A stretch of DNA of 64,000 nt. It comes from Rhizobiaceae bacterium. GTDB lineage: Bacteria > Pseudomonadota > Alphaproteobacteria > Rhizobiales > Rhizobiaceae. The notes beneath the pieces were generated by a model. That model made no database searches. It was not told where the DNA came from and saw only the letters and a list, made by a program, of their open reading frames with translations. The stretch spans positions 126,386-190,385 of the forward strand of contig CBDFIN010000007.1 in the NCBI GenBank assembly GCA_965248135.1, read 5' to 3'. Made by a program: the position numbers and the translations under genes. Of this stretch, positions 8,057 to 64,000 are shown in pieces; positions within the stretch are counted from its first letter, which is position 1; each line of letters starts with the position of its first letter.

Positions 8057-8080
8057 GTTCACCTTTATGAGAGTTTTACT

Positions 8081-8245: not shown

Positions 8246-8274
8246 GAAACAAAATGGCCTGTTCATTTTGTTTC
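8246..8274 (-). terminator. Hairpin downstream of the STAND-TPR gene (weak terminator candidate)
   Basis: GAAACAAAATG (8246-8256) pairs perfectly with CATTTTGTTTC (8264-8274) around a 7-nt loop. The stem is A/T-rich and has no clean U-tract. Confidence 0.3.
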
Positions 8275-8306
8275 AATGCAGAAAGTGCCAATCACGCTTT
8301 AATCTC

Positions 8307-11790: not shown

Positions 11791-11865
<75 letters not shown>

Positions 11866-11978
11866 CAAAAACCAATAAAAACAAATAGATACGACTTGCC
11901 ACATTTTCGCCACTACCTGAAAATAGCATGCGCACTCCTTACGCACTTTTGGCTATTTTTCGGTTTTGGGGGTGATCC

Positions 11979-44833: not shown

Positions 44834-44995
44834 TGCTGATATAGTGCCTGCAAAAGCTGAAAAAACAGTTAAGAAGCCATTAAAAATGGTTAGTCCCAGG
44901 CGTGTCCCCTAAGCAGTGCTTAGGAAGCTGAAACATTTTCAACATACTGAATTTTATCGATTTATGCAAAGAGGCTGTAAACAGGGGTTTTGATC

Positions 44996-45550: not shown

Positions 45551-45892
45551 AGCTCCGCCGCATCATCCCGATCATGATCAAATTCTTGCTCCTGATTACC
45601 ATATAAGTCGCCCATTTGTACAGAATGGAGCTGCTCGCTTGCCGCTTCCAACTCCTGTCGCTGCCCATAAAGTTCATGGTATTTCACGCGATCTGTTAAC
45701 GCGCAGCCGACTTCCTGCAATGGTTTGCCGAACCATCCCTCTTCCACCACTCGTGCGCGAACATCGTCCACCGCTGCAGCCAGAGCATTGGGCCTTATTT
45801 CTCCCCAGTGCTTTTGTAATCGATTTTTTTGATTCTAATTCTGCGCGCAGTTTGCGTTGCTCACTCGATATACGATATTGTTCGTTCGCCAT
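45547..45892 (-). pseudogene. Small gene split between two frames at an A7/T7 homopolymer
   Basis: MANEQYRISSEQRKLRAELESKK (from the ATG at 45892) runs into the T7 run at 45824-45830. The next frame continues ..RLQKHWGEIRPNALAAAVDDVRARVVEEGWFGKPLQ... to the stop at 45547. Confidence 0.45.
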
Positions 45893-46423
45893 GTTATAGT
45901 CCTCGAAATTCCGGTGGCGCTATCGCTAGAAAAGGTCAAATAGCTGCAATGACACTCATTGATTCCATACTTAGCCGATTGTCCGGCATTGATACAGCCT
46001 CCAAGTCGTCTCAACCACCTTCACCAACCACTGATGACGACATATTGCCACCAGCACCCGTTGTTTCATCACCGGCACTTCTTTCCATACCACAGCCGGT
46101 TGCCATAAGATCCCGTGCCAAAAAGGTAAGGCAATCGACTTATTTGTCCGATAGAAAAGCACCTTTGTTGAGACTGTCAAAACACGATTATTGGACAGTT
46201 GAAGATGCCGTGTGCGGCACCCATATTTTTGGTGGGAATGGATCTGGAAAAACCACGGGATCCGGACAAACCATTGCCAAGGCGTTTCTGAGAGCAGGTT
46301 TTGGAGGACTGGTTCTTTGCGCCAAGCCCGATGAATTGGTGAACTGGCAAAATTATGCAAAGGCGTGCGGGCGCTCCCAACATTTGATAGTCTTGGCTGA
46401 GGATGAACCGTGGCGTTTTAATT

Positions 46424-47639: not shown

Positions 47640-48897
47640 ATTTTATTCAGTATGAGTTGAACCGACCAGGTGATCCAGCCAGCCGGGTTGATAATCTGGT
47701 CACCGTTTTGATGAACCTGCTTGAGCAGACCGGCAGACAAAGCGGTGGTGACGATCGCATCTGGCAACAGGCAGCTGAGCAGTTATTGCGCAATGTGTTG
47801 ATGATATTGGTAACAGCGCGCAAAGAATTCAGTCTTCTCGATATTCAAAAATTCATCGATGCCATTCCACAAACCGTACAGGAAACCAAAACATCAAGCT
47901 GGAAAAATACCGACACGGCTAAATATCTGATTGACGCGAAGGCTGCATATGAGAATGCGAATCGCATCGCAGATTATGAAGCAATCCACCATTACCTCAC
48001 AGTGCAATTTCCGTCACTTGCAGCCCGAACACGGTCTTCCGTGACATTTACTTTGTCGGCTACTTTGCAGGATTTATTGGTTGGTGCCACCCGAGAATTA
48101 TTGACCACGGGGTGTAATTTTTTTCCGGAGGACACCCATGAAGGAGCCATCATTATATTGGCGATGCCAGCAGCAATCAAACGCTCTTATGCAACCGCGC
48201 AAACACTGTTCAAGGTCGTCTGGCAAATGGCCGCACTCAGGCGCATGGAGCATGTCAATGAACAAACACGACCAATCTTCTTATGGATAGACGAAAGTCA
48301 CCTCTTTGCATCCGATTTTGACACAACATTTCAAAGTTTGGCTCGCACTTCAAGAACGTGTTCTTGCTGGCTAACACAATCCCTGAGCAGTTACGTCCAC
48401 CGTCTTGGAGGCAAAAACCCTGAACACACGACACGCGCTTTAATGTCATTCTTCCAGACCCATCTGTTTCATGCTCAGGCGGATCCGGCAACAGTCGATC
48501 ACGCGCAAAAATTATTTGGTAAAGGAGAAATCACACGGTTCAATCAGCAACGATCATCGGTGCAAGGCACCAACTGGTCGCATTCCAGTGGTGGCCAAAC
48601 GACCTACAGCGGACACAGTAATTCAGATGGTAGCTGGGGTTCAGCGAGTGGTGGGGGTTCGAATTGGTCTGACGGCGAAGGAGGAAATCAATCAGATACA
48701 GTCGGTCATTCCACTACTACCACAATGGAAGAAATATTGCAGGCGTCTGATTTTGCCGGATTAGCAACCGGAACCGATCAGGTTGATCAATCACGCAAAC
48801 ATTTACGCGGCATCTCGCAAGCCTGGGTGTTTCGCACCGGAAGGCCATGGGCGGATGGCAATATGCATTTACTTGCACAATTTGACCGTCGGTTGCC

Positions 48898-49635
48898 ATG
48901 AAATCACGTAGGCCACGGATTCTCCCACGTATCGTGTACTTCGTGCTGTTGTCTTTTTCCGCACCATTATGGTTGTTGTTGCGATCTTGGTATGGCCCAC
49001 GGCTTTATTTCATACTTTTGATTGCCTCCTTGACGCATCCATTCGCCTTGCTTTGGTTTTCGATGCTGTTAGATACATTGGATTTTGAGGATACTGCGAA
49101 ACAGCTTGAGCATTGGTTAGATTGGTCTACTTCTATAATAATCCTGGGGTTTGGAATTCAACTCGTAATTATTGTCTTGCAAATTACGGCGATTACAATT
49201 TCTCGCATGTGGCGATCTCATCCCGCGTTTGCGGGATCGTTTTTGCTTTGGCCGGCATCACGCCGAACCTTTCCATTCGATTTCATCGGTTTGGTGGCGC
49301 TTGCCTACATATTGCCATTAGGTGTTCCACTGCCACCAATGACTATTCTGGACATCGCGGTAGCTCTGCCACCGCATCAGATTGATGATGCAGCCATCTT
49401 CATTGCCACCATCTATGGTTTGCTTGTCATTGATATCACTTTTAACAACGGCAGACTGCGGTTTTTCGATTCAGGTGAAGAGCCAAAATCACATCCGAGA
49501 ATCAAACCCAAGCCTGCAAATAAATTCCAAACGCGTATCAGCAAAACGGCAAAGCCTTCAGCCGAAACACTTGGCGAAATATTTTCCCGCCGTGACAAGG
49601 CATTGAAAGACATCAACCAATCGGTTGACCGATAG
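48898..49635 (+). CDS. Hypothetical polytopic membrane protein, translationally coupled (ATGA) to the coupling-protein gene
   Basis: It has several hydrophobic segments, for example IVYFVLLSFSAPLWLLL, YFILLIASLTHPFALLWFSMLL and IIILGFGIQLVIIVLQITAITI. Confidence 0.6.
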   Translation: MKSRRPRILPRIVYFVLLSFSAPLWLLLRSWYGPRLYFILLIASLTHPFALLWFSMLLDTLDFEDTAKQLEHWLDWSTSIIILGFGIQLVIIVLQITAITISRMWRSHPAFAGSFLLWPASRRTFPFDFIGLVALAYILPLGVPLPPMTILDIAVALPPHQIDDAAIFIATIYGLLVIDITFNNGRLRFFDSGEEPKSHPRIKPKPANKFQTRISKTAKPSAETLGEIFSRRDKALKDINQSVDR

Positions 49636-49829: not shown

Positions 49830-51026
49830 GTGACAATTTCCCAAGAGCAATTGTCTATTCTTCGCGACCGAATGGAAGAAAAATTGGGATGCGCCACATT
49901 TCGATCCTATCTTTCGGATGCTAATTTTGTAGCGGATGTCGCCTGCACCAATGTACAATTGATAGTTTCATCAAAATTCAGGGCCGATCGACTTAACGAA
50001 CACCACAAGTTCGATATCCAGAATGTCATTTCACAGGTGTTCGGGAAATCGATCAGTCTGGAGATTGAGGCAAATTCACACTGCGGGCAGCCAGAAACCC
50101 AACAGCTATTCGAGGCCGATGAGCAATATAATATGTTTGTCCCAACCATCTCGGAAGTATCGATAAAAGATGACGTGCATCTTATGGGAATTGCACCATT
50201 CACTCTCCAACCGCGCGGCGACACCCGTACCAGGCTTTGTTACAGAAATATTGACGGCATGGACATCGATATTAAAGCGCACCCGGATTATGGGCTTCCC
50301 ACCCCGATGGACTTTAACATCGTTCTAATGATGGAGAGCCATTTGGCGGCGAGTGCCAATCACTACCGAAGAGCGCTGAACTACTATCAAACCATGAAAA
50401 AAACTGGTCGAACTATCGAGAAACCTAACCCGCCACCAAGGGTGTTTCGCCCCACAGTTAAAGAGATCATGGAATTCACACGCGATCACGACACCAAACT
50501 TGGTAAACGATATGGAGGTAAACAGGCATCTGTCCTTGAGCTAAGGCTGGATAGACTTAAGAACACCAATGCTAAAATTCGCCAAACCGGAAATCGCCGA
50601 AAACGCGTTGGAACATTTAGTTATATTGGCGATTGGCGCGTGGTTTCGGAAACAGAAACAGGCAATATAGAGCAGGTAGAAATTGAGTATCCTGACTGGA
50701 TTTATGCCGGGATTGTTGAGGCTGTCAGGCCTACTATTCTTACATATGACGATGATTATGAACTGCTAAAACAGCCAATTATGATGTTTCTTTACCGGGT
50801 CTTGCGTTCCAAAGTGACCGATAATCATAAAGAATTTTATTTGGAGGATCTGCATCGTCGTAGCGGATCACGTCAACCCCTGAAAGAATTTAACCGAACA
50901 CTTATAGAACGCGTTGATGAGACGGAGAAACAAGGATTCTTTGATTGGAGTTTATCAATCCAAGGCAATGCGAGGCAACGCAAATTGGTGGTCACAACAA
51001 GGGTACCAGCCTCTGAAGAGCCATAA
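49830..51026 (+). CDS. Replication initiator protein A-like (RepA/RPA family)
   Basis: DYGLPTPMDFNIVLMMESHLA resembles the conserved G(L/I)xTxxDxDILIxLxS box of the RPA family as I remember it. The gene is immediately followed by an iteron array. The start is GTG. Confidence 0.55.
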   Translation: MTISQEQLSILRDRMEEKLGCATFRSYLSDANFVADVACTNVQLIVSSKFRADRLNEHHKFDIQNVISQVFGKSISLEIEANSHCGQPETQQLFEADEQYNMFVPTISEVSIKDDVHLMGIAPFTLQPRGDTRTRLCYRNIDGMDIDIKAHPDYGLPTPMDFNIVLMMESHLAASANHYRRALNYYQTMKKTGRTIEKPNPPPRVFRPTVKEIMEFTRDHDTKLGKRYGGKQASVLELRLDRLKNTNAKIRQTGNRRKRVGTFSYIGDWRVVSETETGNIEQVEIEYPDWIYAGIVEAVRPTILTYDDDYELLKQPIMMFLYRVLRSKVTDNHKEFYLEDLHRRSGSRQPLKEFNRTLIERVDETEKQGFFDWSLSIQGNARQRKLVVTTRVPASEEP

Positions 51027-51062
51027 CAAGGGCAGGTCGTATCAGTTGTCAGCATTTTCTGT

Positions 51063-51418
51063 TCGTACTATGCCCCACTATGGGACAATCTCCTCAACTC
51101 GAAACAAATAAAATCTCGTACCATGCCCCACCATCAAACAGAATTTAGCCAGATGCTGACTATTATTGCAGTTTTGGTGGTCTCAACTTGACTTTCATAA
51201 GTGTCGGCAAACCTGTTGATTTCTCGTACCTTACCCCACCATTTACCGGACTATGCTACACCAAACACGTACCATGCCCCACCATCACTCGTACCGTGCC
51301 CCACTATCGTTCGTACCATGCACACCGCACTTTTGTTCTTATTCAATATGTTAGATCACCCCCTTTTTCTTATTCCTATATCTTCTTTCACCAACCGTCA
51401 CGTACTGCGTCCCACCAT
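51063..51418 (+). promoter_or_regulatory. Seven direct 19-bp iterons (consensus TCGTACCATGCCCCACCAT), a candidate replication origin
   Basis: The copies are at 51063, 51116, 51224, 51267, 51289, 51311 (degenerate) and 51400. The three central copies are spaced exactly 22 bp apart. An A/T-rich stretch of about 60 bp (51330-51390) separates copies 6 and 7. Confidence 0.7.
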
Positions 51419-51869: not shown

Positions 51870-52420
51870 CTAACATGCTGCAATTATTGATGTATGTCGT
51901 GTTTTACGCACTTTATTACTGTCGATGGCGGTATATTGGAACCGGCGGATATTCTGACCTCTTTTGCCTTTGAATGTCAGAAACTTAACATCCATTTGAA
52001 TCTGGTGACCAGGAACTTGTTTGTTGTAGCGCTTGGTGTGTATTTTCCGCATTCGGGTGCCGCGAGAGAGACGGTTCAGACCATTGCGCCTGAGGATTCG
52101 ATAGACTGTGGCATCTGATAAATTGAGGCCATGATATCTCGCCATATACCACACGATCCTCATTGGGCCGAGATGGTATTTGCGGCGAAGAGGTTGAACC
52201 CTTCCTCAATTACAGGGTCCGTTCTATTTGCGTGCCGCTTTGTAATTGGTTTGGCATTAATCAACCCGGCTTCACCATGCTTTTGATAAGCTTCTCGCCA
52301 TCTGTAGAAGCTGGATCTGCCGACCCCAAAATACCGACAGGTTTTGGCGACATGACCAATCTTTTCAGCATATAGAAGAATGCTTAGTTTGCGATGAATT
52401 TCGCGTTGATCCTTGTTCAT
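51870..52420 (-). pseudogene. IS481-like (rve DDE) transposase remnant, frameshifted and 3'-truncated
   Basis: The HTH part is CRYFGVGRSSFYRWREAYQKHGEAGL (52160-52420). The next frame has IVWYMARYHGLNLSDATVYRILRRNGLNRL...VPGHQIQMDVKFL...FQYTAID. Similarity is then lost, and the remaining DDE residues are missing. Confidence 0.65.
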
Positions 52421-52641: not shown

Positions 52642-54582
52642 TTGGGTTTTAAAGGGTTCATTGTGAATACAGCAATACGCGGCGATTTACCGGGATGGCT
52701 CCTGGATCGAATTGATTCCACATCTGACGAAGAGGTGCGCGAAGAAATTGAGATTAAATTCATTCTTCCGAAAAATAACTGCCTCACCGCAGTGAAAAAA
52801 AACAACCCCAGAATACAGAATATTGAACAGATCTATATTGATATAAATGTATTAAAAGAGACCGCAGTAAATATATTGCCGGACAACTGCGATACTTATA
52901 CCGAATGGCGTGTCAGGCGAAATAATGACGAGTATTTTGTGACCGGAAAATCTGAAACCGCTACAAGTATCACTCGCAATGAATTTCAAAGGCCAATCAG
53001 CACAGAAATGTATAATTCCATAATAAAAACAACAGGTAAGAACAAGAATACAAAATCGGTCAAGAAAATCAGGCAATCTTTCGAATTGACCGTTGGAAAA
53101 GAAACGATTTTGGTTGAGGTCGATAATTTCAAAGAGGTGGCAGGGAATCCCGTGAATCTGGATTTCGTTTATTGCGAGTTGGAACTGAAAAGCAAACCAC
53201 TGGCAAGATCAATTCAAAGTGGGCTGGTCAGCATTGGGGCATTGGAAACATTTGTTGTCGGCTTGGAGGTCACCAGATTTAGAGAATTTAAAAATGCTTG
53301 GCTTGCTGAATACGGATTTCCGGCAGAGACATTTCATAAAGTAAATGCATGGGTGCAAAACGCTTGTACTCGCGAATTTCAACAAATGATATGTAAAGCA
53401 GACCCCAAGGAAATAGGGCATGTTATGTTGACACTAGAGCAACGTAATCAAATTGGGAAATCAGAACTCAAATCCAGCGCAAGTGCTAAACCGCCGCTCG
53501 CGGAATTGCGTTTTGACGTGGGAGATACTTATGGCCGGTCGGCACGAGTTCCCGAGAAATTCAATATTGCCGACAATCACGGCTATGGCTGGTTGCGTGA
53601 CTTTCAAAAAATTGTTTCTTCAGATCCATTTCTCAGACTATTTTCCAAACCGCAAATATTTAGACCAGGGCTGGGAAACAATACCACCACGACCAGAGGA
53701 CAGCACACGCTGGATGTAATATCAAGCGCACAAAATATTGCCAATCAAACCGGGTTAAACGATCACCTCGCTGCGGCAATAGCCGCATTGCACGATTTGG
53801 GGCATCCCGCCGGAGGGCACAAGGGCGAAGAATTCCTGTCAAAATTGAGCAGGCAGTCTGGCGATGGAACATCCATCTTGTTTAAACACCACATTTATTC
53901 TCTTTCACTGGCAGAAATATTTGATTTTAACCTGCAGAGAGAAGTGCAAATTGGCGCGTTTTATCACAAGTCCGGTGGCAAAAAACTCACTGCTCCCGCC
54001 AATTGTCCCCAAGAGTTTGGTGTTGTCAGAATTGCCGACAAAATTTCCTATGTACCTTGGGATATTCACGATTCGATCAAGAATAATTTCTTGAAAAAGG
54101 GTGATGTTCCCCAATGGATTTATGATGAATTGGGCTCTGAGCCACCCGATTGGATTATTACAATGATCGACGCAATTGTTGATGAAAGTCAGCAGGAGTT
54201 TAGTGTAACATTCTCTGAAAAATCGGGAAAGGTTTTTAAAGCCTACGAGGCTGCAAGGAAAATTGTGTATGATAATGTGCACAGTAAAATATTTTGGCAA
54301 ACTCTTGAGGTTCAATACGAGTTATCTTTTCAGATACTTAAAAATTCATTCCCCGATATCGATCCGATTCCGATTCTGGCTTATATGACTGACTCTGAAA
54401 TTGAACAGATCGCAAAACATGCAGAAGCCAATCCAATTGGCACAAGTATTGACTTGGAATACTTAAAGGATACAGGAATGGGAGTGGTTGAGATATTGGA
54501 GCATTTAGCGAAAATCAAGGAAGCGGGGGAGTGGGACCAGAAGGTATTTTTCCATCATATGGAACGCCACCGCCTAAAGTAA
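52642..54582 (+). CDS. CYTH-like domain fused to a dGTPase-like (Dgt/SAMHD1-type) HD phosphohydrolase domain
   Basis: The N-terminal CYTH signature ExExK is in EEIEIKFILP, with WRVRR and a late strand LDFVYCELELKS. The C-terminal HD domain has RGQHTLDV...IAALHDLGHPAGGHKGEEFL and VVRIADKISYVPWDIHDSIK (compare the dGTPase boxes HDIGHxPFGHxGE and ADDIxYxxHDxxD). The start is either TTG 52642 or GTG 52663. Confidence 0.72.
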   Translation: MGFKGFIVNTAIRGDLPGWLLDRIDSTSDEEVREEIEIKFILPKNNCLTAVKKNNPRIQNIEQIYIDINVLKETAVNILPDNCDTYTEWRVRRNNDEYFVTGKSETATSITRNEFQRPISTEMYNSIIKTTGKNKNTKSVKKIRQSFELTVGKETILVEVDNFKEVAGNPVNLDFVYCELELKSKPLARSIQSGLVSIGALETFVVGLEVTRFREFKNAWLAEYGFPAETFHKVNAWVQNACTREFQQMICKADPKEIGHVMLTLEQRNQIGKSELKSSASAKPPLAELRFDVGDTYGRSARVPEKFNIADNHGYGWLRDFQKIVSSDPFLRLFSKPQIFRPGLGNNTTTTRGQHTLDVISSAQNIANQTGLNDHLAAAIAALHDLGHPAGGHKGEEFLSKLSRQSGDGTSILFKHHIYSLSLAEIFDFNLQREVQIGAFYHKSGGKKLTAPANCPQEFGVVRIADKISYVPWDIHDSIKNNFLKKGDVPQWIYDELGSEPPDWIITMIDAIVDESQQEFSVTFSEKSGKVFKAYEAARKIVYDNVHSKIFWQTLEVQYELSFQILKNSFPDIDPIPILAYMTDSEIEQIAKHAEANPIGTSIDLEYLKDTGMGVVEILEHLAKIKEAGEWDQKVFFHHMERHRLK

Positions 54583-54685
54583 AATCTTCAAGGAATTCTA
54601 CCAAATAGTTAACAGGAGTGCCTTGTTTTTATTGCCCTTTGTTGTAAAGTTGCTGCATAAATTGATTGGTTGATTTGAGGGACTA

Positions 54686-57600
54686 ATGCAAAGACCCTTT
54701 GTTGTAAATCTGGTTTCACACAAAGGCGGTGGCGGGAGAACGACCGTCGCGGTCTCACTTGCGGAAATTTTGGCTGTCCAAGGCAAAAACGTCCTCCTGA
54801 TAGACATGGATTTTGAAGCTCCGGGCATTCCATTGTTTACCAATCGGTGGAACACGGAAAAACTTAAATCCATCATGGATTTTCAGCCAGAAAACCTTGT
54901 CTGTATTGCCGATATTTCGCCTGCTAAACCCGGGCAAAAACCGATATCCGAAAAAAACAATGTTGGATCGACTCGTTGCCGGATTCCAGGCAGTGTGGAC
55001 TGCCTGCAGATGACTTTAGAACATATCAGGGAGGGGTTGCCGGATATTTCAGATGCCAACATCAAATGGAATCAAAGCGTCGTTTCTGATATCTTACAAA
55101 CATTCCGAGAAAACGACAGTATTGGGAAAATTGAAGTCCAGGTACAGAAACAAATGAGGGATTACATCTATGAGTATATTCCCAACTCAAAAAAAGAAAT
55201 TTCTGGAAGTCAACCAACGAAACTGCCTGCCCGAATATTTTTACTCCCGTCGGGTGGATGTTATTTTAGAAAATCGAAAGAAACCATCCGTTGGGAATAT
55301 TCTGGAACCAATTATTACATCCTAGATAGCATGAGTTCTGACGAGACGGCGCGCAGTAAGATCGCGCAGCCATGGTTGCCGCGAGAATTTGTTTTCAATG
55401 GCGTAAATTTGACGGCGACGCTGGTCAACGCCGCAGTTTACCAACTTGACAAGATAAATGCGTCTGTTGATTACGTAATTATTGACCTTCGCCCGGGAGA
55501 TGATGTGGTCACAGGTGCAAATTTCAGTGCTTCTGATGGTGTAACCTATACCAGCGCGGCGTCCCGGGGGGCCATGAACGGGATAATAGAAGATATTAAA
55601 ATTCATAAAGATGCTTATTTACCACAAAAAGAGGGGGAAAGAAATGATCGAGTACCAAAAATATTCGGCTGCTTTATTGATAAACTCTCTTTTGAGGCCC
55701 GGAAAGATTCCAGAAATTATGCGCAAGAAAATGTTGACGATCTTGGCTACCCCGATGTTTTTGATATTGTTAGTGAAAAAGATGATTGCCTGAAAAATAT
55801 CGGAAAAATTGATTCTATTGGTAGAACCATGCAGGTTGCGTGCCATCATGCATATGGAACGCTAAACCAGATCCCGCTATTTCCATGGAACAATGCCGAT
55901 ACAAAAGACAAGGCTTTCGATGTCGTTGGTTCGGTCGATACTATTTGGTCCACTCTCGGGCTAAAAAAATTCCGGCCTGCAAGTTTACTACCGCTGCCTT
56001 TGGATAACTATACGTTGACCGTCCAGGAACGCACCTTTGAATTGACGGACTGGTCGAAGCGTGTTGCGTTCTGGAGTGACAATTCCGTTCTTCAAAATGA
56101 TCCGATTGGAGCGGGTGCCAATTGCATAGCGCTCGTATCAGCCGAATATCGCGATAGTTTCTCAGATCCACAGACCGTACCAATTAGATATTTCCAGGGG
56201 GATTTTAAGGGCGACTGGATCTGGCGAATGGCGAATGCGCTGGGCCTCAAATGTACAGATGGAAATGAATCCGGCGACACCGCGAAAAAAATAATGAGTG
56301 TGTTGGACAAGGCGCCTCAATCTATAAAAGAACTCGATGGGGAGTTGAGCTCCGGTGCAGTTCTTGATTCGTATTATTTCGTACTTGGAAAATTGGTTAA
56401 TTTAATTGCGCAGGATTCAAATGAAAAATCTGAATATGAAACAATATTGCAACTATGTGATGCTGCAATTAGCGCTTTTGAATGCCGCGAAAGCCATTTG
56501 AAATATGACGGCCTGAAAATAAATCTCAAGATACTTCAGGCGAATACCTATTTCAAATTGGCGACCATTGAATTTGACTTGTACGAACTGAACAATGCTC
56601 GCGATCACTTTAAGAGAGGGTTGAAGCTCTTTACCGAAGTCAGGGAGATTTCAAATACCAGCGGGGATTCGCTTCTGAAGCTGGACGCAGACAAGTATGA
56701 GAACCTGCGGAAAGATGCGGACACTGAAAACGTGTTGTTTTTTCTTAATTACTTTATCACTGAGAATGAAGCCAAGGCTACGGAATTGATGGGCAAGACC
56801 GATAATTCTCTCGTAATCTCATTGGTCGATTGGTTTGAGCCACTTCTGAAACTATGGAGTAAACCGGATTCAGTACCCAAAAGGTTGGAAATATGGATCG
56901 AAGATTATAATCTTTCTGATATTGCATTTTTTCTAGCCGCGACCGGTTCTACGCCCTTGAAGAACCTTTCAGACAAACTGTTCAAAGCCTTGACTTCGGC
57001 ACTCGACAATAACTGGGCGACCCTTCAATTTTCAATAAGAGCCCATATGTTACCCTGCTATTTACACAATGCCTGGGCCGGTTTGGCATTCAGCAGGGAT
57101 AAGCCAAACGACGTATTATCCCGCCGTTTGGACGATATTTACCGTCAAACCAATGCGTTTGGTGGATTGAAAAATCGGGCCAAACTGCAAAACTGGGCAG
57201 GAATTGCCAATCTGGAATTGGCAAAGGTAATGTTTTTAGACAATTCCATTGATGCGGCAACTGAGTTTTCGCGGCGGGCGGCATCCCTTCTTTTGCGTTC
57301 AGCTATTAACGACCATGATATTTCCGCCTGGTTTTTACTGGCAATCGCAAGAACAGTGACACGCAGGTGCCTAGAAGAAAGAGTCGGCAATTCAGCGGAC
57401 TCAAAAGACAAAGAAATATTGTTAAAGAGGATATTGATCGTACGACGGGATGCGTTTTATGCCTACGAACAATGGCACGCCCTGGCATCTGCAGATGTAA
57501 CCCGAGACGATAATCAAGATCATTTCAATCCCGAAAAATGCACAATGAAGTTCCTAGATGAAGGGAAGGCAAAATCAAATAAAACTGCATTAGCCTTGTT

Positions 57601-57886
57601 TGGTGAAGATGTAGAGGTTCAAGATGATACAAATTTGGGTATGGACAATGACAAGACCGTCATGATCAGGCCTGGATTAATCTCAACCATTGGTGGCCTA
57701 GATCGGTATTATCAAGGAAGCGAGGCAGGCGAACTTGATGAGAAATTGAGTGAGTATCTAATACAAGTTCTTGATGGCAGTGGTAATGAGCACTGGAATA
57801 GAAATACAGCTCTTGGATATGCCAAAGAAGTGAAAGGGCATTTGAAAGTTTATCTAAAACTGGGGCTGGAAAAAGACGGGGAATGA
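54686..57886 (+). CDS. Large ParA/MinD-clade ATPase with a variant Walker A (KGGGGRT) and a long helical-repeat C-terminal region (1066 aa)
   Basis: VVNLVSHKGGGGRTTVAVSLAEILAVQGKNVLLIDMDFEAPGI. A Walker B-like strand VDYVIIDLRPGDD lies at about residues 261-273. The C-terminal region of about 550 aa is helical and TPR-like by eye. The RBS GAGGGA precedes the ATG. Confidence 0.75.
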   Translation: MQRPFVVNLVSHKGGGGRTTVAVSLAEILAVQGKNVLLIDMDFEAPGIPLFTNRWNTEKLKSIMDFQPENLVCIADISPAKPGQKPISEKNNVGSTRCRIPGSVDCLQMTLEHIREGLPDISDANIKWNQSVVSDILQTFRENDSIGKIEVQVQKQMRDYIYEYIPNSKKEISGSQPTKLPARIFLLPSGGCYFRKSKETIRWEYSGTNYYILDSMSSDETARSKIAQPWLPREFVFNGVNLTATLVNAAVYQLDKINASVDYVIIDLRPGDDVVTGANFSASDGVTYTSAASRGAMNGIIEDIKIHKDAYLPQKEGERNDRVPKIFGCFIDKLSFEARKDSRNYAQENVDDLGYPDVFDIVSEKDDCLKNIGKIDSIGRTMQVACHHAYGTLNQIPLFPWNNADTKDKAFDVVGSVDTIWSTLGLKKFRPASLLPLPLDNYTLTVQERTFELTDWSKRVAFWSDNSVLQNDPIGAGANCIALVSAEYRDSFSDPQTVPIRYFQGDFKGDWIWRMANALGLKCTDGNESGDTAKKIMSVLDKAPQSIKELDGELSSGAVLDSYYFVLGKLVNLIAQDSNEKSEYETILQLCDAAISAFECRESHLKYDGLKINLKILQANTYFKLATIEFDLYELNNARDHFKRGLKLFTEVREISNTSGDSLLKLDADKYENLRKDADTENVLFFLNYFITENEAKATELMGKTDNSLVISLVDWFEPLLKLWSKPDSVPKRLEIWIEDYNLSDIAFFLAATGSTPLKNLSDKLFKALTSALDNNWATLQFSIRAHMLPCYLHNAWAGLAFSRDKPNDVLSRRLDDIYRQTNAFGGLKNRAKLQNWAGIANLELAKVMFLDNSIDAATEFSRRAASLLLRSAINDHDISAWFLLAIARTVTRRCLEERVGNSADSKDKEILLKRILIVRRDAFYAYEQWHALASADVTRDDNQDHFNPEKCTMKFLDEGKAKSNKTALALFGEDVEVQDDTNLGMDNDKTVMIRPGLISTIGGLDRYYQGSEAGELDEKLSEYLIQVLDGSGNEHWNRNTALGYAKEVKGHLKVYLKLGLEKDGE

Positions 57887-57950
57887 ATTGGCACCATGAG
57901 CGCATATTCACTGGCCAAGAAAATGGTCCAATGGAGGTTAAGAACTTAAA

Positions 57951-60092
57951 GTGACGCTTTTTATTTCGTTTTACTCTTTTAAGGGTGGTGTCGGTCGCAC
58001 CAGCGCGATGATGAATGTCGCACGCCATCTGGCGGAACGAAAAAAGAAAGTACTGGTGGTCGATGCGGACGTTGCCGCGCCGGGTATTGATGTATTCGAA
58101 ATTCTGGACCGTTCAATGGTTGATTTTCCTAGTTACAGCCCCTACCGGCGGGAAATTTATCATCAGCTAAATGAGCTTGCTCAAGGTACCGATAATGCAA
58201 ATGACCAACATATCTGGAAGACCGGGGTTTTAGAAAAACTGGACGAAAAAAGCGAGAATGAAGAACTTACTAACAGAGAACTTATTCAAAAAATTCTTGG
58301 AATTGCCGATGAAAATTCCAAGCCTGCCAATCATTCTGAAAGTTCCCAGCCGGTAAACTGGATGGAGGTTGATAAATTTGTCGAAGCCAACAGCAAGCCC
58401 GCTAAATTGTTGGCCTTGAAAGAGGAAAATACCGGATTTGTTGAGTATCTTAATACATTGAGCGGAGGTAATGATCCGGATTTAAGTTGTATAAAAAACA
58501 TCGCTGCAAAAACGGTTATGCACGCCGATATCAAGATGATGCGTGCCGGCGCTTATGAGGACAACAAAGAGTATGAAAAAATCCAAAATGAGTTGATAAC
58601 GCGGCTGAATGAATTGGCAGAAGACCGCGATGATGATAGCGGCATCAGCAAAAACCTAATTAAACTGGCCAGGGAATTTCATCAGGAAGTTAATGACAAG
58701 ATTAAAGCTGACTATGTTCTGATCGATTGCCGACCTGGCCGGGACATTATAACCCAGTTTTGCGTCAATTATCTGGCTGAGATCAATGTATTGATGTTTA
58801 ACCTTAATCCCTGGAATTTCAGTGGCATCCAGACCACTTACAGCGAGTTGGTTAAATTTCACAAGGAAATTAAGAAAGATCCGAAAAAATACTCCGGTGC
58901 CCATCCTGAAATTCGGATTTTGCTCGCTGCGTCACCTGTTCCCCGTTATGCCAAAAATTCAGACCTCTATGCGGGCCAGATACAAAATGTGAACAACACA
59001 ATGAGTTATGCCAAGAATATTCAAGGCAAGGGTGGCAGCGTCGTTGAGGTGCCTTTTTCAGATATTTTGTTGCTGCGTGACATAATTATTTTTGATTACG
59101 ATCAGTCAGATCTGGCAAACACAGCTTACAGTGAGTTGGCTGACCTGATTATCGCAGAAAACACCGGTGATGTGCAAAACATCGTTCAGCGCGTACTTTC
59201 CGGTCATCAAAATAAACAGGAACAAATAGAACAACTAAAGGTACTGGCGTCATTAAACTTGAACAGCCCCATCGTCGCTTTGGAACTGGCCAAATTACAA
59301 ATGGATGGCGCGGACTATAATGATAGCATTGATTCACTTTGCATAGCCGGTGAGCGCGAGAATATTAAAATTGGGGAACTTACGGATAGCCGTTCTGCGG
59401 ATGATGAGTCAGAAATTTGGAATTCAGGATTTACCGCCGAAATTCGAATTAATCTTGCCGAGGTATTCCACAAGAAATCAGAGGAAGGCGATAAACCCGA
59501 ACCAGAGGATTCAGAACTGAAGCCCAAAACACTAGAGCTCAAAACCACGTGTGACATAATTTGCCTCCATAAAAAGATTATTAGTGACAGAAAAGGTTCA
59601 GGAGAATTTGCGAAAACTGACGGAGAGTATCCGGATTTCGATACCGTTTTCACATTCGACCCAAGCTGTGGCGATAAATCGGTTGAAGAGTTTTCTGATC
59701 GCGTGGCAAAAAGATGGAGTGACGATGTTTTTCGTAAAAAACTCGATGATACTGCTACCCAGGAGACTGGCGATGAAGTTTTGGAAACCGACAATTTGAA
59801 AAAGGGAGAAACCGAACTTATGCACGCTCTGGCGCTGATGTTTCACCTCAAGGCTTGCAGGCTGCAACAAACAATAGCGCCGTCTGGCAAGAAAATTTAC
59901 GATTCCGATTCAGGAAGCCAGTCGAACGATAATTTTGAACGACTGGGCTGCTATGCCATAGCTGCCGAAAATATGAGCCAAATGGCATTTGATCTGGACA
60001 AGCAAAATGCAAAATTCGCCAAATCACTGGCAAAAATGTCCCGCACCCGGTCCAGTGCCGAAAGCTTGATCACTTTCAGAAAGAAAGATTGA
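57951..60092 (+). CDS. Paralogous ParA/MinD-clade ATPase with a KGGVGR variant Walker A and a helical C-terminal region (713 aa)
   Basis: FISFYSFKGGVGRTSAMMNVARHLAERKKKVLVVDADVAAPGI. A Walker B-like strand ADYVLIDCRPGRD lies at about residues 253-265. The start is GTG, with GGAGG upstream. Confidence 0.75.
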   Translation: MTLFISFYSFKGGVGRTSAMMNVARHLAERKKKVLVVDADVAAPGIDVFEILDRSMVDFPSYSPYRREIYHQLNELAQGTDNANDQHIWKTGVLEKLDEKSENEELTNRELIQKILGIADENSKPANHSESSQPVNWMEVDKFVEANSKPAKLLALKEENTGFVEYLNTLSGGNDPDLSCIKNIAAKTVMHADIKMMRAGAYEDNKEYEKIQNELITRLNELAEDRDDDSGISKNLIKLAREFHQEVNDKIKADYVLIDCRPGRDIITQFCVNYLAEINVLMFNLNPWNFSGIQTTYSELVKFHKEIKKDPKKYSGAHPEIRILLAASPVPRYAKNSDLYAGQIQNVNNTMSYAKNIQGKGGSVVEVPFSDILLLRDIIIFDYDQSDLANTAYSELADLIIAENTGDVQNIVQRVLSGHQNKQEQIEQLKVLASLNLNSPIVALELAKLQMDGADYNDSIDSLCIAGERENIKIGELTDSRSADDESEIWNSGFTAEIRINLAEVFHKKSEEGDKPEPEDSELKPKTLELKTTCDIICLHKKIISDRKGSGEFAKTDGEYPDFDTVFTFDPSCGDKSVEEFSDRVAKRWSDDVFRKKLDDTATQETGDEVLETDNLKKGETELMHALALMFHLKACRLQQTIAPSGKKIYDSDSGSQSNDNFERLGCYAIAAENMSQMAFDLDKQNAKFAKSLAKMSRTRSSAESLITFRKKD

Positions 60093-61078
60093 GGGAGATG
60101 GCATTTCCTATTTGCGAACATAAAGAATTTATTGCCAAGAACCAACCGCTTCATGATCGATTGAAGGATGCGCTGGAGCAAAATCCACTGGACTATGACC
60201 TGCTCAAGGATCGCGCCTATTCGTTTGTTGCCCGGGGTCTGGCATTTTTATGGCGCGCCGGTAATAGTAGTGACCAATCGGATAACAAATGGTTTCTGGC
60301 TCACTATCCGCTCCGGAATGAAATACCATTCATTGTTTGTTCGCAAAACGAAGCAAGACAAATCAATGCCGAAGGCGAGGTTGAAGCAAGCACTGCTCTC
60401 GGTGAACTGGAAAAAGCCATCGATGTATTTGAAAGAATGCATGAAAGAGATTCCTCACTTTCCGATGGAAAGATGGGACAGGGCCTGTGTACTTTGATTA
60501 TTGCCATCAAACTGAAAGCCGGTGGCGGATCAAGTCGTGATTACATAACAAAGCTTGAAGAGGCAGCCGCTGCCTTTGACGATGCGCGACTGGCGGGTGA
60601 ACGGGCCGGCCCCGCCTATCTATATGGTGCCCTGACCCATTTCTTGCTTCTAGCAACGCAGGAAATTCAATCCCATTTCAAATTCCGTTCCGCCGAAGAC
60701 TGGGAGAAACTATACGCCTATCATGCTCGAAAGCGTCAGGCTTTTTACAGACTGGAACATTTTATCGATCAGTTTCTTGAAGATATTATTGAAGGTTGTG
60801 ATGATGTCCAAATTGCGGGTGACGGGAAAGTCTGTAATTTGAAAGAAGCAAGAAGTGGTGAAAAGCCTTTGGGTTTTTATTTCGATCCCGTGGATGTAGT
60901 CAAAATACTACCAAACCCCATTTATGCAATCGGCTCCCTCGAAAAGAAGCTCGCATTGATGCCGATTTGCAAGTCTTTTCTAGGAGCGAAAGAATTTGTG
61001 GCTGACGGAGAAAAAATTGACGAAATTATTGCAAAGCAGGCTCGGAATTTGTTGGAGGACCATTGTGTTGCCGATTGA
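60089..61078 (+). CDS. Hypothetical all-helical protein (329 aa), overlapping the stop of the preceding ATPase gene
   Basis: The TTG at 60089 overlaps the TGA stop at 60090-60092. An alternative ATG is at 60098. No motif was recognised. Confidence 0.55.
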   Translation: MREMAFPICEHKEFIAKNQPLHDRLKDALEQNPLDYDLLKDRAYSFVARGLAFLWRAGNSSDQSDNKWFLAHYPLRNEIPFIVCSQNEARQINAEGEVEASTALGELEKAIDVFERMHERDSSLSDGKMGQGLCTLIIAIKLKAGGGSSRDYITKLEEAAAAFDDARLAGERAGPAYLYGALTHFLLLATQEIQSHFKFRSAEDWEKLYAYHARKRQAFYRLEHFIDQFLEDIIEGCDDVQIAGDGKVCNLKEARSGEKPLGFYFDPVDVVKILPNPIYAIGSLEKKLALMPICKSFLGAKEFVADGEKIDEIIAKQARNLLEDHCVAD

Positions 61079-61204
61079 CGAGCTCTTGTCCGCTACCCCC
61101 CTCAATGTTAACTATAATTTGAACTTAATCTGCCACGGATTAGACCTGCCCCGCGATAAAGGTCAAGATACTGCAAATGCAAGCGTCATTTACCGGATTA
61201 TGTT

Positions 61205-63955
61205 ATGCCTGATTTAATGAGAATCAGCATATTTAGCAGCATTTTTACTGGAAATCGGTTGTTTAACCTGTTTGCGTTTCTTTCATTTGCCGCCGCATTT
61301 TCCCTACGCATTGGCAGGGATATTGCCCTGTTTACTTCTCTGTTTGCGTACGGAATTTGGGAGCAAGAGTTAGGTCTGAAAGGGGGGGCTGCCATATTGG
61401 GCATCAGTTTTGTCATCAACGCATTTCTGATGACCTGGTTCGCCGGAAAATTCGAAAGTTGGATTGAGACAACAGCACCCGAAACCATATCGACTTTTCT
61501 GCTTGTTCTCGTTGCTGTTGCAGCACTCCTGTTCGGCGTTTCGCTTGATCTTGTTGCCGGATGGGGCCGGTTACCATGGCTTGCGCTTGCTATTTTTGTT
61601 CTGTCGGAAATTGCCATATTTTTGTTCATGAATATGATCTGGATATTTGCAGGACCAAGATTTACAGAGGTTGCCCAGCGCTCGGTTTTTCCAAAAATAT
61701 CCGGCTGGGGATATATCGGCATACTGCTTCCCGTTCTGCTGGGAGGCATGGAACTCGTGTTGTTAGAAATCGCCAATGCTTCCCATCTATTCTATTTTTC
61801 CGCACTGTTAACATTGCTGGCAATCCTGCTGTTGCCGCTCATCAAATCATACCCTTTGATCTCAGAGAATGATGATGAATTTTCAATAGCGCAATCTCCC
61901 GACAACGATGATGAAAGTTTGAGTCTGGGCGATAATTTGGCTTGGGCCTGGCGTAACAGGTACTTGCGATTGTTCATTCTTACCACGATTATGAATTTCA
62001 GTCTGCTGGCGATATTTGATCAGGCGCTTGCAAGTTCTGCATCTGCCATGAAAATAAATTCAAAGGACCTGTTATTTTACCTCATCGGCGCCACCGGGCT
62101 TTTTGCGACAATTGCAGCTATTGTTCAATTTACAGGATTTAGGAGGTGGTTGGACAGATTTGGCGCAGAGAAATTAAATCTGGGCGCACCTTCATCTATG
62201 ATTATCGGGGCGCTAATTTCGGCGGTCGGTTTGACCGGTTGGTTGACTGGAAATTTGCCGCCAATGGAACGAATTTTGTGGTTCGCTGTGACCGCGAGGG
62301 TTTTTGGCTGGATCGCCGAGTTTTTGTTCAACCAGTCCTTGTTGCCCTATATTTACGGCGCCTTGCCATCTGACGTGGAAAATCGCGGTCGGCTGGTTGT
62401 TGAAGGCCCTATAACGGCAATAACCAATGGGGCAATCGGGGCGCTACTCTTGCTTTATGTCTGGATTTTTGATGGCAAAGCAACAAGCTCGGATGGAAGT
62501 GCCGTCATGATGTTTGATTTTATGGCGCTGCTGGCAATCGTGTTTGCAATCATCATGTTTATTTGGTCAATCTATATGATAGGTGAATATAAACAGGTTC
62601 TGCTTGAAAGGTTGACCTCCGGCGAGGTGATTTCTGGGCTGGACAAGCGATCCATGCAGCTTATCAACAGCTTGCGCCGCACAGCCGAGACAATTGGCAG
62701 ACCAACAGTCCCGAATAAATTTCAATCGAAAATTTTGTCGGATTTGTTGAAAGAGAACCTTGATGACCCGGGTCTATCGGCAACATTTGTCACTGAGCTC
62801 CATAGTCTGTCAACACCAACCGAAAACGAACTGGAAGAAATCTGTATCATTGCCACCCGCTTGGGGGTTTTGGAAAGGCTCGGCGAACCCCTGACCCGAT
62901 GGCTGGAGAATACAACAGAAGAGAATTTTGTCAGTATTGCCCAGATACTGGTTCCCTCGGGGTTTGACGGGGGAATTATTATTCATGAATCTTTGTTGAA
63001 CCGTCAGGCAAGTTCCGGATTAAAGCTGAGTCGTGCAAAATTGCTCGAGTGTTCTGCATTATTGGGCAGCGAGAAATGGGGCAAAGCCGCTATTGATGGT
63101 TTTTGGGAAGAAAAAGATTACCCCGATATTATCAGTTCAATTACCAATCCGGCGCGCTTGTCAGCTCTAAAATTCTCGGAGCCCGCCCTGCAGTTTGACC
63201 TGTTTTTGATTGGTCTTGCCCGTCTTTCATCCGAGCGTAGCGCAATGATTGAAGCATGTTCAAAAATGGCAACCGAAAATATCTGGTTGAGAGAATTTCT
63301 GCTTCGCTTGCTGTTTGTCCCTGCTGAACATGTCCCGTCAATGTTCAAAACCGCCCGACTTATGTCTCCATTAGTGTTGGCAAAAATTCACAGTCAAAAG
63401 ACAGCTGGCAAGATTGATTATGCCTCAAAAAATGCGACTATTGTTGAAAATCGAGAGAAAGCACGACCAACAGAAAAAGGTCGCCCGAACGAAATCCAAA
63501 AATTTATCACCACAATAAGCAAATTGGAGGATGTAGATGATTTTCGGGGCGAAGGTGCATACAGTATATTGATATCTAATGATAAATTGGCAGCCGACCC
63601 GGTTTTATTCGCGAACGCACTCAGCATGTTGTGTGACCAGCAGGCAAAACAGCAAATATCAGCAATTGACTTTAACACTGGATTGGACCGTTGGCGTAGC
63701 GAAGCCGCAAAACCTCAATCGAACATCGGGAAAAAATACCTAACCAGAGCCAGAATATATTTGGAAGGGCTGAAAAACCACGAGGCATTTCGCGACCTTC
63801 CGGACGTTCCGGAGCTTGCCGTGCAACTGTATTCGGGCGGAAGCCAGGCTGACCGGATTCAGGCACGTCTTGAGCAATTGATGTCCCGCATTGAAGCAAC
63901 CGTTCTCACCCAGGATATCAGAGAACTAGCGAACAGAATTTCCACAACTGCGTAA
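61205..63955 (+). CDS. Polytopic membrane protein (about 12 hydrophobic segments, 6+6) fused to a soluble helical C-terminal domain of about 450 aa
   Basis: The hydrophobic segments occupy about residues 15-460, with an acidic central loop SENDDEFSIAQSPDNDDESLSLGDN. The general look is MFS/nucleotide-transporter-like (weak). The C-terminal half is helical-repeat-like. Confidence 0.65.
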   Translation: MPDLMRISIFSSIFTGNRLFNLFAFLSFAAAFSLRIGRDIALFTSLFAYGIWEQELGLKGGAAILGISFVINAFLMTWFAGKFESWIETTAPETISTFLLVLVAVAALLFGVSLDLVAGWGRLPWLALAIFVLSEIAIFLFMNMIWIFAGPRFTEVAQRSVFPKISGWGYIGILLPVLLGGMELVLLEIANASHLFYFSALLTLLAILLLPLIKSYPLISENDDEFSIAQSPDNDDESLSLGDNLAWAWRNRYLRLFILTTIMNFSLLAIFDQALASSASAMKINSKDLLFYLIGATGLFATIAAIVQFTGFRRWLDRFGAEKLNLGAPSSMIIGALISAVGLTGWLTGNLPPMERILWFAVTARVFGWIAEFLFNQSLLPYIYGALPSDVENRGRLVVEGPITAITNGAIGALLLLYVWIFDGKATSSDGSAVMMFDFMALLAIVFAIIMFIWSIYMIGEYKQVLLERLTSGEVISGLDKRSMQLINSLRRTAETIGRPTVPNKFQSKILSDLLKENLDDPGLSATFVTELHSLSTPTENELEEICIIATRLGVLERLGEPLTRWLENTTEENFVSIAQILVPSGFDGGIIIHESLLNRQASSGLKLSRAKLLECSALLGSEKWGKAAIDGFWEEKDYPDIISSITNPARLSALKFSEPALQFDLFLIGLARLSSERSAMIEACSKMATENIWLREFLLRLLFVPAEHVPSMFKTARLMSPLVLAKIHSQKTAGKIDYASKNATIVENREKARPTEKGRPNEIQKFITTISKLEDVDDFRGEGAYSILISNDKLAADPVLFANALSMLCDQQAKQQISAIDFNTGLDRWRSEAAKPQSNIGKKYLTRARIYLEGLKNHEAFRDLPDVPELAVQLYSGGSQADRIQARLEQLMSRIEATVLTQDIRELANRISTTA

Positions 63956-64000
63956 TAAAACCGGAGCACGATCAATGGCAACACTTGCTGGAAGCAGAGG

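Follow-up and report, generated by a model that had tools for sequence, protein, structure and literature searches.

The window discussed here is a stretch of 64,000 nucleotides (nt) from a Rhizobiaceae bacterium (assembly GCA_965248135.1, contig CBDFIN010000007.1, positions 126,386 to 190,385). Close to its end (52642–63955) lies a cassette of five genes, g1 to g5, that encode a CYTH-HD fusion enzyme, two variant ParA/MinD-like ATPases, a helical protein and a membrane protein resembling nucleotide transporters (Table 1). All five are intact and on the same strand, and their coordinates and junctions (103 nt, 64 nt, a 4-nt overlap and 126 nt) were recovered exactly as given in an earlier reading of the DNA, hereafter the original prediction; 97.4% of the 11.3-kb cassette is coding. 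The cassette represents genes 1–5 of a conserved, very rare and horizontally mobile six-gene module centred on nucleoside triphosphates. Functions are assigned throughout from sequence, predicted structure and gene context.

Table 1. Features of the window and of related loci (L001–L017). Abbreviations: aa, amino acids; rSAM, radical-SAM gene; g3g4, fused gene; x, further open reading frame (ORF); MAG, metagenome-assembled genome; CNBD, cyclic-nucleotide-binding domain; IS, insertion sequence; SBP, substrate-binding protein.
Feature	Locus	Position	Strand	Remarks
g1, CYTH-HD fusion enzyme	window	52642–54582	+	646 aa; database copy 639 aa
g1 CYTH domain	window	ca. 52744–53190	+	
g1 dNTPase-type HD domain	window	ca. 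53554–54291	+	
g2, ATPase A	window	54686–57886	+	1066 aa; ParA/MinD-like P-loop domain, helical middle, C-terminal module
g2 Walker A motif	window	54716–54742	+	KGGGGRT(T)
g3, ATPase B	window	57951–60092	+	713 aa; paralogue of g2
g4, detached C-terminal module of ATPase B	window	60089–61078	+	329 aa, helical
g5, membrane protein	window	61205–63955	+	916 aa; NTT/TLC-like MFS plus alpha-solenoid
g5 NTT/TLC-like MFS domain	window	61256–62617	+	ca. aa 18–471
g5 alpha-solenoid	window	62729–63949	+	ca. aa 509–915
g6, start, cut by window end	window	63975–64000	+	presumed orthologue of CNBD + CYTH (degenerate ExExK) proteins
Two IS481-like transposase fragments, degraded IS	window	51870–52420	−	partial NCBIfam NF033577 matches; upstream boundary
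RPA-type (RPA-family) replication initiator	window	49830–51026		PF10134, 1e-35
Iterons, five to six	window	51059–51326		core CGTACCATGCCCCACCAT; 18–25 nt each, spaced 22–108 nt
MobF relaxase	window	within 42014–48901	−	939 aa; upstream of cassette
IS30-family transposase	window	46535–47632		apparently intact; upstream of cassette
TrwB/T4CP-like coupling-protein ORF	window	47657–48901		414 aa, looks truncated; upstream of cassette
tRNA-Phe(GAA), single gene	window	11791–11865		possible integration site of mobile region reaching towards cassette
Gene order	L001			SRA assembly; g1-g2-g3-g4
Gene order	L002			protein named Candidatus Kentrum (Kentron) in UniRef; rSAM-g1-x-x-g2-g3g4-TIR-g5-g6
Gene order	L003			JGI, 268-kb contig; rSAM-g1-x-g2-g3g4-TIR-g5-g6
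Gene order	L004			Phenylobacterium MAG; g2-g3g4-g5-g6, g1 convergent
Gene order	L005			ENA, 86-kb contig; g1-g2-g3-g4-g5-g6; g2 and g3 broken by frameshifts
Gene order	L006			metagenome; rSAM-g1-g2-g3g4
Gene order	L007			metagenome; g6-g1-rSAM
Gene order	L010			metagenome; g5-g6-g1-rSAM-TIR-TIR
Gene order	L012			NCBI MAG; g3g4-g5-g6
Gene order	L013			SRA assembly; g2-g3g4-g5-g6
Gene order	L017			ENA; g1-ABC importer-two unknown genes-ATPase A-like protein
RaSEA-like radical-SAM gene	L002	1894–3534		
RaSEA-like radical-SAM gene	L003	1055–3481		
RaSEA-like radical-SAM gene	L006	3–941		
RaSEA-like radical-SAM gene	L007	3064–5156		
RaSEA-like radical-SAM gene	L010	6087–9347		
TauT/NitT-type SBP-dependent ABC importer	L017	11946–15013		in module or adjoining
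TauT/NitT-type SBP-dependent ABC importer	L009	2555–3187		in module or adjoining
TauT/NitT-type SBP-dependent ABC importer	L005	16760–19204		in module or adjoining
JAB-E1(ThiF) fusion, AAA ATPase (PDC-M37B/DolB-like), 98-aa ORF	L003	17755–22524	−	

The first protein had been described as a fusion of a CYTH domain with a dGTPase-like HD domain, which is borne out by Pfam matches to CYTH (aa 35–183; 33.6 bits, cut-off 23.2) and HD (aa 352–469) and by NCBIfam dGTPase models, which align to aa 317–549 far under their full-length cut-offs. Since the database copy of g1 has 639 aa, its start was taken as the GTG at 52663. When five to seven members of the family are aligned, the CYTH residues E35, E37 and K39 (the ExExK motif), R90, R92, K103, R112, E114, K142, R144, E179 and E181 are invariant, as are the HD metal ligands H355, H384-D385 and D466. 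With ExExK and the tunnel residues in place, the CYTH domain has the hallmarks of a CYTH/triphosphate tunnel metalloenzyme (TTM) and is thus a predicted member of this group. Its profile finds a sole match in the PDB, Nitrosomonas NeuTTM (8e-8), and no class IV (CyaB) adenylyl cyclase structure even at E≤10. TTM enzymes coordinate their catalytic metals through the ExExK glutamates; CYTH enzymes of the NeuTTM type have been described as hydrolases of inorganic triphosphate, and some CYTH enzymes cyclise nucleoside triphosphates (PMC8233210). The HD domain, whose nearest PDB sequence is the deoxynucleoside triphosphate (dNTP) hydrolase 2dqb of T. thermophilus (3e-23), is assigned by its H..HD..D motif and its Dgt/TT1383-type similarity to the dNTP triphosphohydrolase clade of the HD superfamily. 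HD enzymes of the Dgt/SAMHD1/TT1383 type convert a dNTP into the deoxynucleoside and inorganic triphosphate (PPPi). Judged by its residues, g1 therefore joins a CYTH domain of NeuTTM-like type to an HD domain of dNTPase type, with both catalytic sets intact, and the fusion suggests a two-step reaction in which a dNTP would be cleaved into deoxynucleoside and PPPi, followed by conversion of PPPi into pyrophosphate and phosphate.

The second and third genes had been read as a ParA/MinD-like ATPase of 1066 aa and its paralogue of 713 aa, both with Arg in place of the Walker A Lys and with long helical tails, and this description holds. The N-termini of both match AAA_31, CbiA and ParA, i. e. the ParA/MinD type; the Walker A motif of g3 reads KGGVGRT(S), and Arg replaces the P-loop Lys in all members of the g2 and g3 families. 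Both families keep the signature Lys, the Arg and the aspartates of Walker A' and Walker B without exception (in g2, the invariant residues are K13, R18, T19, D40, D42 and D267), and the strict conservation of these aspartates speaks for a domain that binds nucleotides and against an inert one. The suggested identity as KGGVGR-motif variant AAA ATPases (NF047398, cut-off 90 bits, Walker A motif K-G-G-x-G-R-[ST]) is confirmed for g3 with 106.6 bits, while g2 with 65.9 bits stays below the cut-off and hence is a divergent member. In g3, a ParA-like domain (ca. aa 1–410) is followed by a variable TPR-like region, and the PDB profile matches are accordingly to Soj/ParA in the N-terminal part and to the TPR region of OGT in the C-terminal part. 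The tails of both ATPases, i. e. the C-terminal 300–700 residues, are helical and TPR-like with only 10–20% column identity; in g2, a long variable alpha-helical middle precedes a conserved C-terminal R-D-A-F-Y..E-Q module. Orthologues of g2 hold the same position in L001, L002, L003, L005, L006 and L013.

The 329-aa product of g4 is helical, as stated in the original prediction, yet it does not appear to be a separate protein in origin. Its residues 175–319 align with the C-terminus of fused ATPase B proteins of 913, 872 and 917 aa (L002, L003 and L004), while separate orthologues occur in L005 (33% identity over the full length) and in L001. Moreover, g4 carries the motifs R-Q-A-F-Y-R-L-E-H-F-I and F-Y-F-D-P. 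In an hhalign comparison, the profile built from g4-like sequences matched the C-terminal module of ATPase A (84.5% probability, E 7e-6), and the two have R-[DQ]-A-F-Y..E-[HQ] and [FY]-Y-[FQ]-[DE] in common. Because of these C-terminal alignments, the fusions elsewhere and the shared motifs, ATPase A (g2) and ATPase B (g3 plus g4) are full-length paralogues, with g4 as the product of a gene fission. The two halves are translationally coupled through the 4-nt overlap, in which g4 starts with the TTG in gaTTGA, at the position where the L005 orthologue has an ATGA overlap; aligned g4 orthologues begin at the start Met within this overlap. Searches of Pfam, NCBIfam or PADLOC, no single ORF being run against all three, returned no family for g4. 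In L005, the g2 orthologue is split into two ORFs and the g3 orthologue into at least three (3535–8874), which reflects either pseudogenisation or indel errors of long reads.

The 916-aa protein g5 had been credited with about 12 membrane segments and a helical domain, and an MFS/TLC identity had been suggested. Indeed, some 12 hydrophobic segments in residues 19–459 are followed by a cytosolic alpha-solenoid of HEAT/PPR-like type. While g5 has no direct Pfam or NCBIfam match, a profile of its family retrieved 75 matches among 1.84 billion representatives, the distant ones of which, with E-values significant for the whole library, carry the TLC ATP/ADP-transporter or MFS_1 domain, HEAT repeats and a C-terminal domain that binds cyclic nucleoside monophosphates (cNMPs). 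An hhalign comparison of the g5 family with this TLC/MFS, HEAT and cNMP-binding group gave 99.7% probability (E 9e-26) over g5 residues 21–474. An AlphaFold2 model built on 44 sequences has a mean predicted local distance difference test (pLDDT) score of 83.8 and a predicted TM-score of 0.75, and was used instead of a model on 4 sequences with a pLDDT of 48. With this model, Foldseek returned MFS transporters throughout from the PDB, the best target-normalised TM-score (0.72, root-mean-square deviation 4.7 Å) being reached by the Arabidopsis ATP/ADP translocator AtNTT1 (9j3l/9j3m); for the helical domain, weak profile matches to designed PPR proteins were found. Hence, g5 is modelled as a divergent NTT/TLC-type MFS transporter-like protein with an appended alpha-solenoid, for which nucleotide transport is predicted.

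The original prediction had also raised the possibility that the operon continues past the window. An ATG at 63975, 19 nt past the g5 stop and preceded at a distance of 8 nt by a GGAG ribosome-binding site (63963–63966), opens an ORF of which 8 codons are visible (MATLAGSR...). In the relatives, g5 is in every case followed by a gene for a protein of 344–367 aa, directly so in L002, L003, L004, L005, L010, L012 and L013. From this equal position we infer that the truncated ORF is the g6 orthologue and that the operon runs on into a sixth gene. In the profile of g6 relatives, the N-terminus matches CNBDs (9bhu at 5e-5, MlotiK1 and CRP) and the C-terminus matches NeuTTM (2e-24). The basic tunnel residues of this CYTH domain are kept in the relatives, but its ExExK motif reads x-Q-x-K with an invariant Gln at the second position. 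As the ExExK glutamates are thus replaced, the g6 CYTH domain probably binds a ligand without hydrolysing it.

The coherence of the module is evident from the related loci, which were collected by protein searches, both word-indexed and exhaustive, by a single scan each of genomes and metagenomes and by contig look-ups. Conserved synteny was found in about 12 independent loci of alphaproteobacterial, gammaproteobacterial or metagenomic origin, and every cassette gene has homologues in conserved order elsewhere; permutations of the order among loci keep g5-g6(-g1) linked. The proteins of these relatives are 25–40% identical to those of the window, which indicates old, independent copies. Fusions of g3 with g4 are found in L002, L003, L004 and L013, and a counterpart for g5 and g6 is provided by the more distant 1294-aa P0043 family (L015 and L016), in which NTT-like, HEAT, CNBD and CYTH parts form one polypeptide. 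About ten representatives of this fusion class (1260–1320 aa) are known. In L015 (8006–15450) and L016, the P0043 gene is preceded by a gene for an HD-CE protein and followed by genes for a stand-alone CYTH protein with intact ExExK and a CNBD-CYTH protein, while ParA-like genes are absent from this type of operon. P0043 is a Rosetta-stone fusion of g5 and g6, and it shows that the combination of HD, CYTH, NTT and CNBD recurs without the ParA-like pair. Together with the conserved synteny, the fusions of g3 with g4 and of g5 with g6 count in favour of one linked module. The set of five genes originally proposed is hence correct as a syntenic unit and falls one gene short, the unit comprising six. 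As a side observation, a 133-aa ORF in L015 (6825–7226) consists of little else than copies of a 14-residue unit (VSRSIAKVSRLVPE-like) and is probably a tandem repeat in the DNA rather than a gene.

The family is extremely rare, with about 20–27 clusters among billions of proteins. For g1, 23 clusters are followed by a sharp fall from 459 to 93 bits, where ordinary dGTPase-like proteins begin. Word-indexed searches found three full-length relatives of g3 among 5.8 billion clusters and four relatives of g5, for which the exhaustive search gave 27 representatives with E<1e-30 among 1.84 billion; a scan of genome contigs with the g5 profile returned one locus. The gene set matches no system in PADLOC-DB v2, no Pfam or NCBIfam family and no paper found, in agreement with the statement that no named system contains it. 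In the literature searched, no paper mentions KGGVGR or Sll1717, nothing relevant joins CYTH with phage defence, and HD-CE appears in unrelated uses only. The original prediction had made its proposal of a novel module depend, among other things, on synteny of the homologues and on the lack of a characterised counterpart; given the conserved order in some 12 loci and the failure of any characterised system to match, this proposal survives on both counts.

Several relatives carry accessory genes. The operon includes TIR genes in L002 and L003 and is followed by two of them in L010; the encoded proteins belong to TIR_2, their PADLOC matches of the ThsB/SAVED-TIR type are confined to the TIR domain, and an L010 protein has a weak PADLOC/Pfam match to CAP12-PCTIR. 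Five loci possess a radical-SAM gene related to that of the archaeosine enzyme RaSEA (133, 110 and 50 bits against TIGR01210; C-x11-GC-x2-C motif), and its product may possibly act as a nucleotide- or base-modifying effector. In L010, the radical-SAM protein also has a CYTH-like region, and it shares a C-terminal domain with both TIR proteins (6087–12138; BLASTP 1e-11 and 1e-8) that resembles, by analogy, adaptor or effector-associated domains recruiting different effectors to one platform. In addition, L003 is flanked by a module matching defence models for E1-E2, JAB, PDC-M37B and DolB, which is a ubiquitin-like (Ubl) conjugation module of a type that also occurs in defence islands. The ABC importers of L005, L009 and L017 comprise a TIGR03427-like SBP (urea/guanidine-carboxylase-associated type), a TauC-like permease and an ABC ATPase. 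The ORFs x350, x178 and x589, a 243-aa ORF of L005 and ORFs of 585 and 366 aa in L017 gave no family in Pfam, NCBIfam or PADLOC, none of them being run against all three.

Although the assembly is new, its pieces have counterparts among known proteins. The closest is the NTT-HEAT(-cNBD) architecture (Major, Embley & Williams 2017, PMC5381601), with which g5 and g6 appear to share a 12-transmembrane (TM) NTT/TLC MFS part, helical repeats and a cNMP-binding domain that is fused or encoded by the next gene. This order is present in the seven relatives with g6 directly after g5, while g6 of the window is cut after its eighth codon. NTTs exchange nucleotides and phosphate across membranes, and the NTT-HEAT-cNBD proteins, a functionally uncharacterised family, have been proposed to couple ATP uptake to cAMP (PMC5381601). 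The gene set is new, but g5 and the following gene appear to reproduce an architecture that had already been described. Unlike in the described family, the Pfam TLC and HEAT models fail to recognise the divergent g5, the CNBD partner adds a CYTH domain, and a CYTH-HD enzyme and two KGGVGR ATPases are encoded together with the pair. The ATPases in turn resemble NF047398 proteins, the predicted-inactive MinD/ParA-like domains of the VMAP ternary conflict systems (Kaur et al. 2020, PMC7159879) and PDC-M28B in the retained signature Lys, the Lys-to-Arg exchange in the P-loop, the ParA/MinD-type fold, the helical repeats and contexts of the conflict type. They differ in being tandem full-length paralogues with their own R-[DQ]-A-F-Y module, without vWA, MoxR, STAND or kinase partners. 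PDC-M28B itself matches the P-loop region of g2 alone (39 bits) and two stretches of g3 (71.5 bits), and no other PDC-M28 component was matched, so that the cassette does not belong to PDC-M28.

Similarly, g1 shares the dGTPase-clade HD domain with intact H..HD..D, and the proposed dNTP depletion, with anti-phage dGTPases. In contrast to these single-gene systems, it is fused to CYTH and part of a six-gene operon, and its matches are partial, with 49.4 bits against NF041026 (cut-off 400), which excludes membership, and 74.9 bits against the PADLOC dGTPase over aa 306–407 only. As regards the CYTH triphosphatases NeuTTM and YgiF, the likeness lies in ExExK and the tunnel residues of g1 and in the NeuTTM match of g6, whereas the fusion to HD or CNBD and the replaced glutamates of g6 set the module apart. 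The resemblance to Pycsar and Thoeris consists in an enzyme that acts on nucleotides, a module that binds cNMPs, a component in the membrane and, in relatives, TIR proteins; the six-gene module lacks a PycC/CD-NTase cyclase, ThsA/SLOG and a Macro sensor, the window copy is devoid of TIR, and a complete 12-TM transporter takes the place of a pore former with 2–4 TM segments. Taken together, the parts are of known kinds, and so is the grammar, in which an NTPase sensor is combined with an enzyme that depletes nucleotides and with membrane and TIR effectors; what is new is the way in which they are assembled, the presence of an NTT-like component and the use of CYTH in three places.

What the module does can be proposed with some caution. 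The favoured interpretation, tentatively held at a probability of roughly 0.45, is that of a mobile conflict system of the abortive-infection type that acts against phages or mobile elements by depleting nucleotides or altering their flux. It is suggested by the TIR and radical-SAM accessories that are interchangeable between loci, by the mobile carriage and by the rarity and patchy distribution. Furthermore, the combination of conserved enzyme, ATPase and transporter cores with very variable tails is reminiscent of immune sensors, and the defence-like Ubl/E1/JAB and AAA module adjoining L003, the lowered GC content of the cassette and the invariant catalytic residues of g1 are counted on the same side. 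Conceivably, the ATPase pair would serve as an NTP-bound sensor and scaffold whose variable solenoid tails recognise a cue of the invader. Activation could then release g1, the HD domain of which would cleave dNTPs into deoxynucleosides and PPPi, and removal of PPPi by the CYTH domain would render the depletion irreversible. At the same time, g6 may sense a cyclic nucleotide and/or a triphosphate ligand and gate g5, so that an altered nucleotide flux across the membrane would arrest replication of the invader and possibly the cell as well. In relatives, an NAD-consuming TIR protein or a nucleotide-modifying radical-SAM enzyme might act as further effectors. The defence-like grammar noticed in the original prediction is thus upheld as far as the TIR genes of L002, L003 and L010 fit a conflict role, while defence as such is an inferred function. 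A scan of viral contigs with the g1 profile found no homologue, a result that neither supports nor refutes a conflict role.

A defence role would bring NTT-type transporters, CYTH/triphosphate chemistry and tandem Lys-to-Arg ParA-like switches into bacterial immunity, and the nucleotide-depletion theme known from dGTPase, dCTP deaminase and SAMHD1 would gain a membrane-coupled, multi-component form. Apart from defence, the module offers a genomic handle on two orphan classes, the NTT-HEAT-cNBD proteins (including a conserved protein of Chlamydia) and the KGGVGR ATPases. The presence of three CYTH-bearing proteins in the wider system, joined to HD, CNBD and radical SAM, respectively, points to a shared triphosphate ligand. 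A more daring extension, which is unlikely as it stands, would make PPPi or another triphosphorylated small molecule a second messenger. PPPi would be released by the HD domain of g1 once the twin ParA-like sensors fire, and be read by the disabled CYTH domain of g6, while the CNBD reads a cyclic nucleotide; g6 would then gate the NTT-type transporter, which dumps or exchanges nucleotides, and the active CYTH domain of g1 would terminate the signal. If true, this would be a new logic of immune signalling, the first function for the NTT-HEAT-cNBD class and the first role of a nucleotide transporter as an immune effector.

Several observations weigh against a conflict system. The window contains no TIR homologue, radical-SAM protein or other classical effector, and no cassette protein passes a defence-system model, the partial PADLOC matches to dGTPase and PDC-M28B being the only ones. 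ABC importers beside g1 or in the operon (L005, L009 and L017) are unusual for defence, L005 and L017 are surrounded by metabolic or flagellar genes, and NTT-HEAT-cNBD proteins are widespread in free-living bacteria without a known defence role (PMC5381601). Through the importers, this wide distribution and the ordinary surroundings of some loci, a physiological function in cNMP-regulated nucleotide transport, salvage and signalling stays a serious rival, and the main one, though less probable than a conflict system. Here, g5 would exchange nucleotides or phosphate and be tuned by g6 in response to a cyclic-nucleotide or triphosphate signal, g1 would process imported or surplus (d)NTPs and PPPi, and the ParA-like pair would position or assemble the membrane complex. 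Members of the ParA/MinD family such as BcsQ and FlhG commonly localise membrane complexes, which fits this assignment, as do the missing full match to any defence model and the apparent NTT-HEAT-cNBD architecture of g5 and g6. However, relatives have TIR genes inside or beside the operon, both ATPase tails are hypervariable, a dNTPase-type HD domain destroys nucleotides instead of salvaging them, and rarity, patchy taxonomy and carriage on mobile elements suit a conflict cargo better.

Alternatively, g1 could act as in Pycsar, with CYTH as a CyaB-type cyclase whose cNMP product binds the CNBD of g6 and activates g5, and with HD degrading the signal. In Pycsar effectors, cNMP binding is coupled to TM or TIR modules, and a CNBD can be recognised in g6. 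Cyclisation is within the known repertoire of CYTH enzymes (PMC8233210). Yet this scheme is distinctly improbable: the restriction of the g1 CYTH matches to NeuTTM, without similarity to class IV adenylyl cyclases, makes a cyclase less likely, the HD domain is of the dGTPase/dNTPase clade and not an HD-GYP or phosphodiesterase, no locus contains a PycC or CD-NTase-type cyclase, and the TIR proteins of the relatives are devoid of CNBDs. The adjacent replicon, finally, might suggest that g2 and g3 form its partition system, surrounded by unrelated cargo, as they lie 1.3–3.6 kb downstream of the RPA-type initiator and the iterons and have N-terminal matches of the ParA/Soj type. Canonical ParA/MinD proteins have a P-loop Lys in the deviant Walker A motif KGGxxGK[ST], a length of about 200–400 aa and a cognate partner (ParB, MinE or a centromere); g2 and g3 instead have Arg, 1066 and 713 aa and TPR-like tails, and neither a ParB-like gene nor centromere repeats were found at 52.6–64 kb. 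Wherever orthologues of g2 and g3 occur, the CYTH-HD and NTT-like genes accompany them, as on a 267-kb contig and in loci without a replication gene nearby, and the conserved synteny and the architecture effectively exclude a role in plasmid partition.

As to the genomic setting, the cassette is cargo of a region resembling a plasmid or integrative and conjugative element and lies beside IS elements. It had been placed at the edge of a mobile island, directly after an IS481-like remnant and a RepA/iteron origin, and the IS481 fragments, the initiator with its iterons, the coupling-protein ORF, the IS30-family transposase and the MobF relaxase together show this placement at the edge of a mobile, plasmid-like island to be correct. 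The initiator gene and iterons resemble a plasmid-type origin inside the contig. Scans of Rfam at 51–64 kb returned no riboswitch or other RNA, the signals of promoter and terminator scans did not exceed the shuffled expectation, and megablast of 44–64 kb against the PLSDB plasmids gave no match. The best plasmid relatives of the relaxase, found by tblastn on plasmids of Runella and Planctomycetes, are about 34% identical. The cassette was also expected to be richer in A+T than the genes at 1–7 kb, and it is, by a modest difference: its GC content amounts to 44.1%, compared with 47.8% at 1–7 kb and 47.2% in the rest of the window. The windowed GC profile that had been called for identifies the cassette as the 11.3-kb stretch of lowest GC content in the window.

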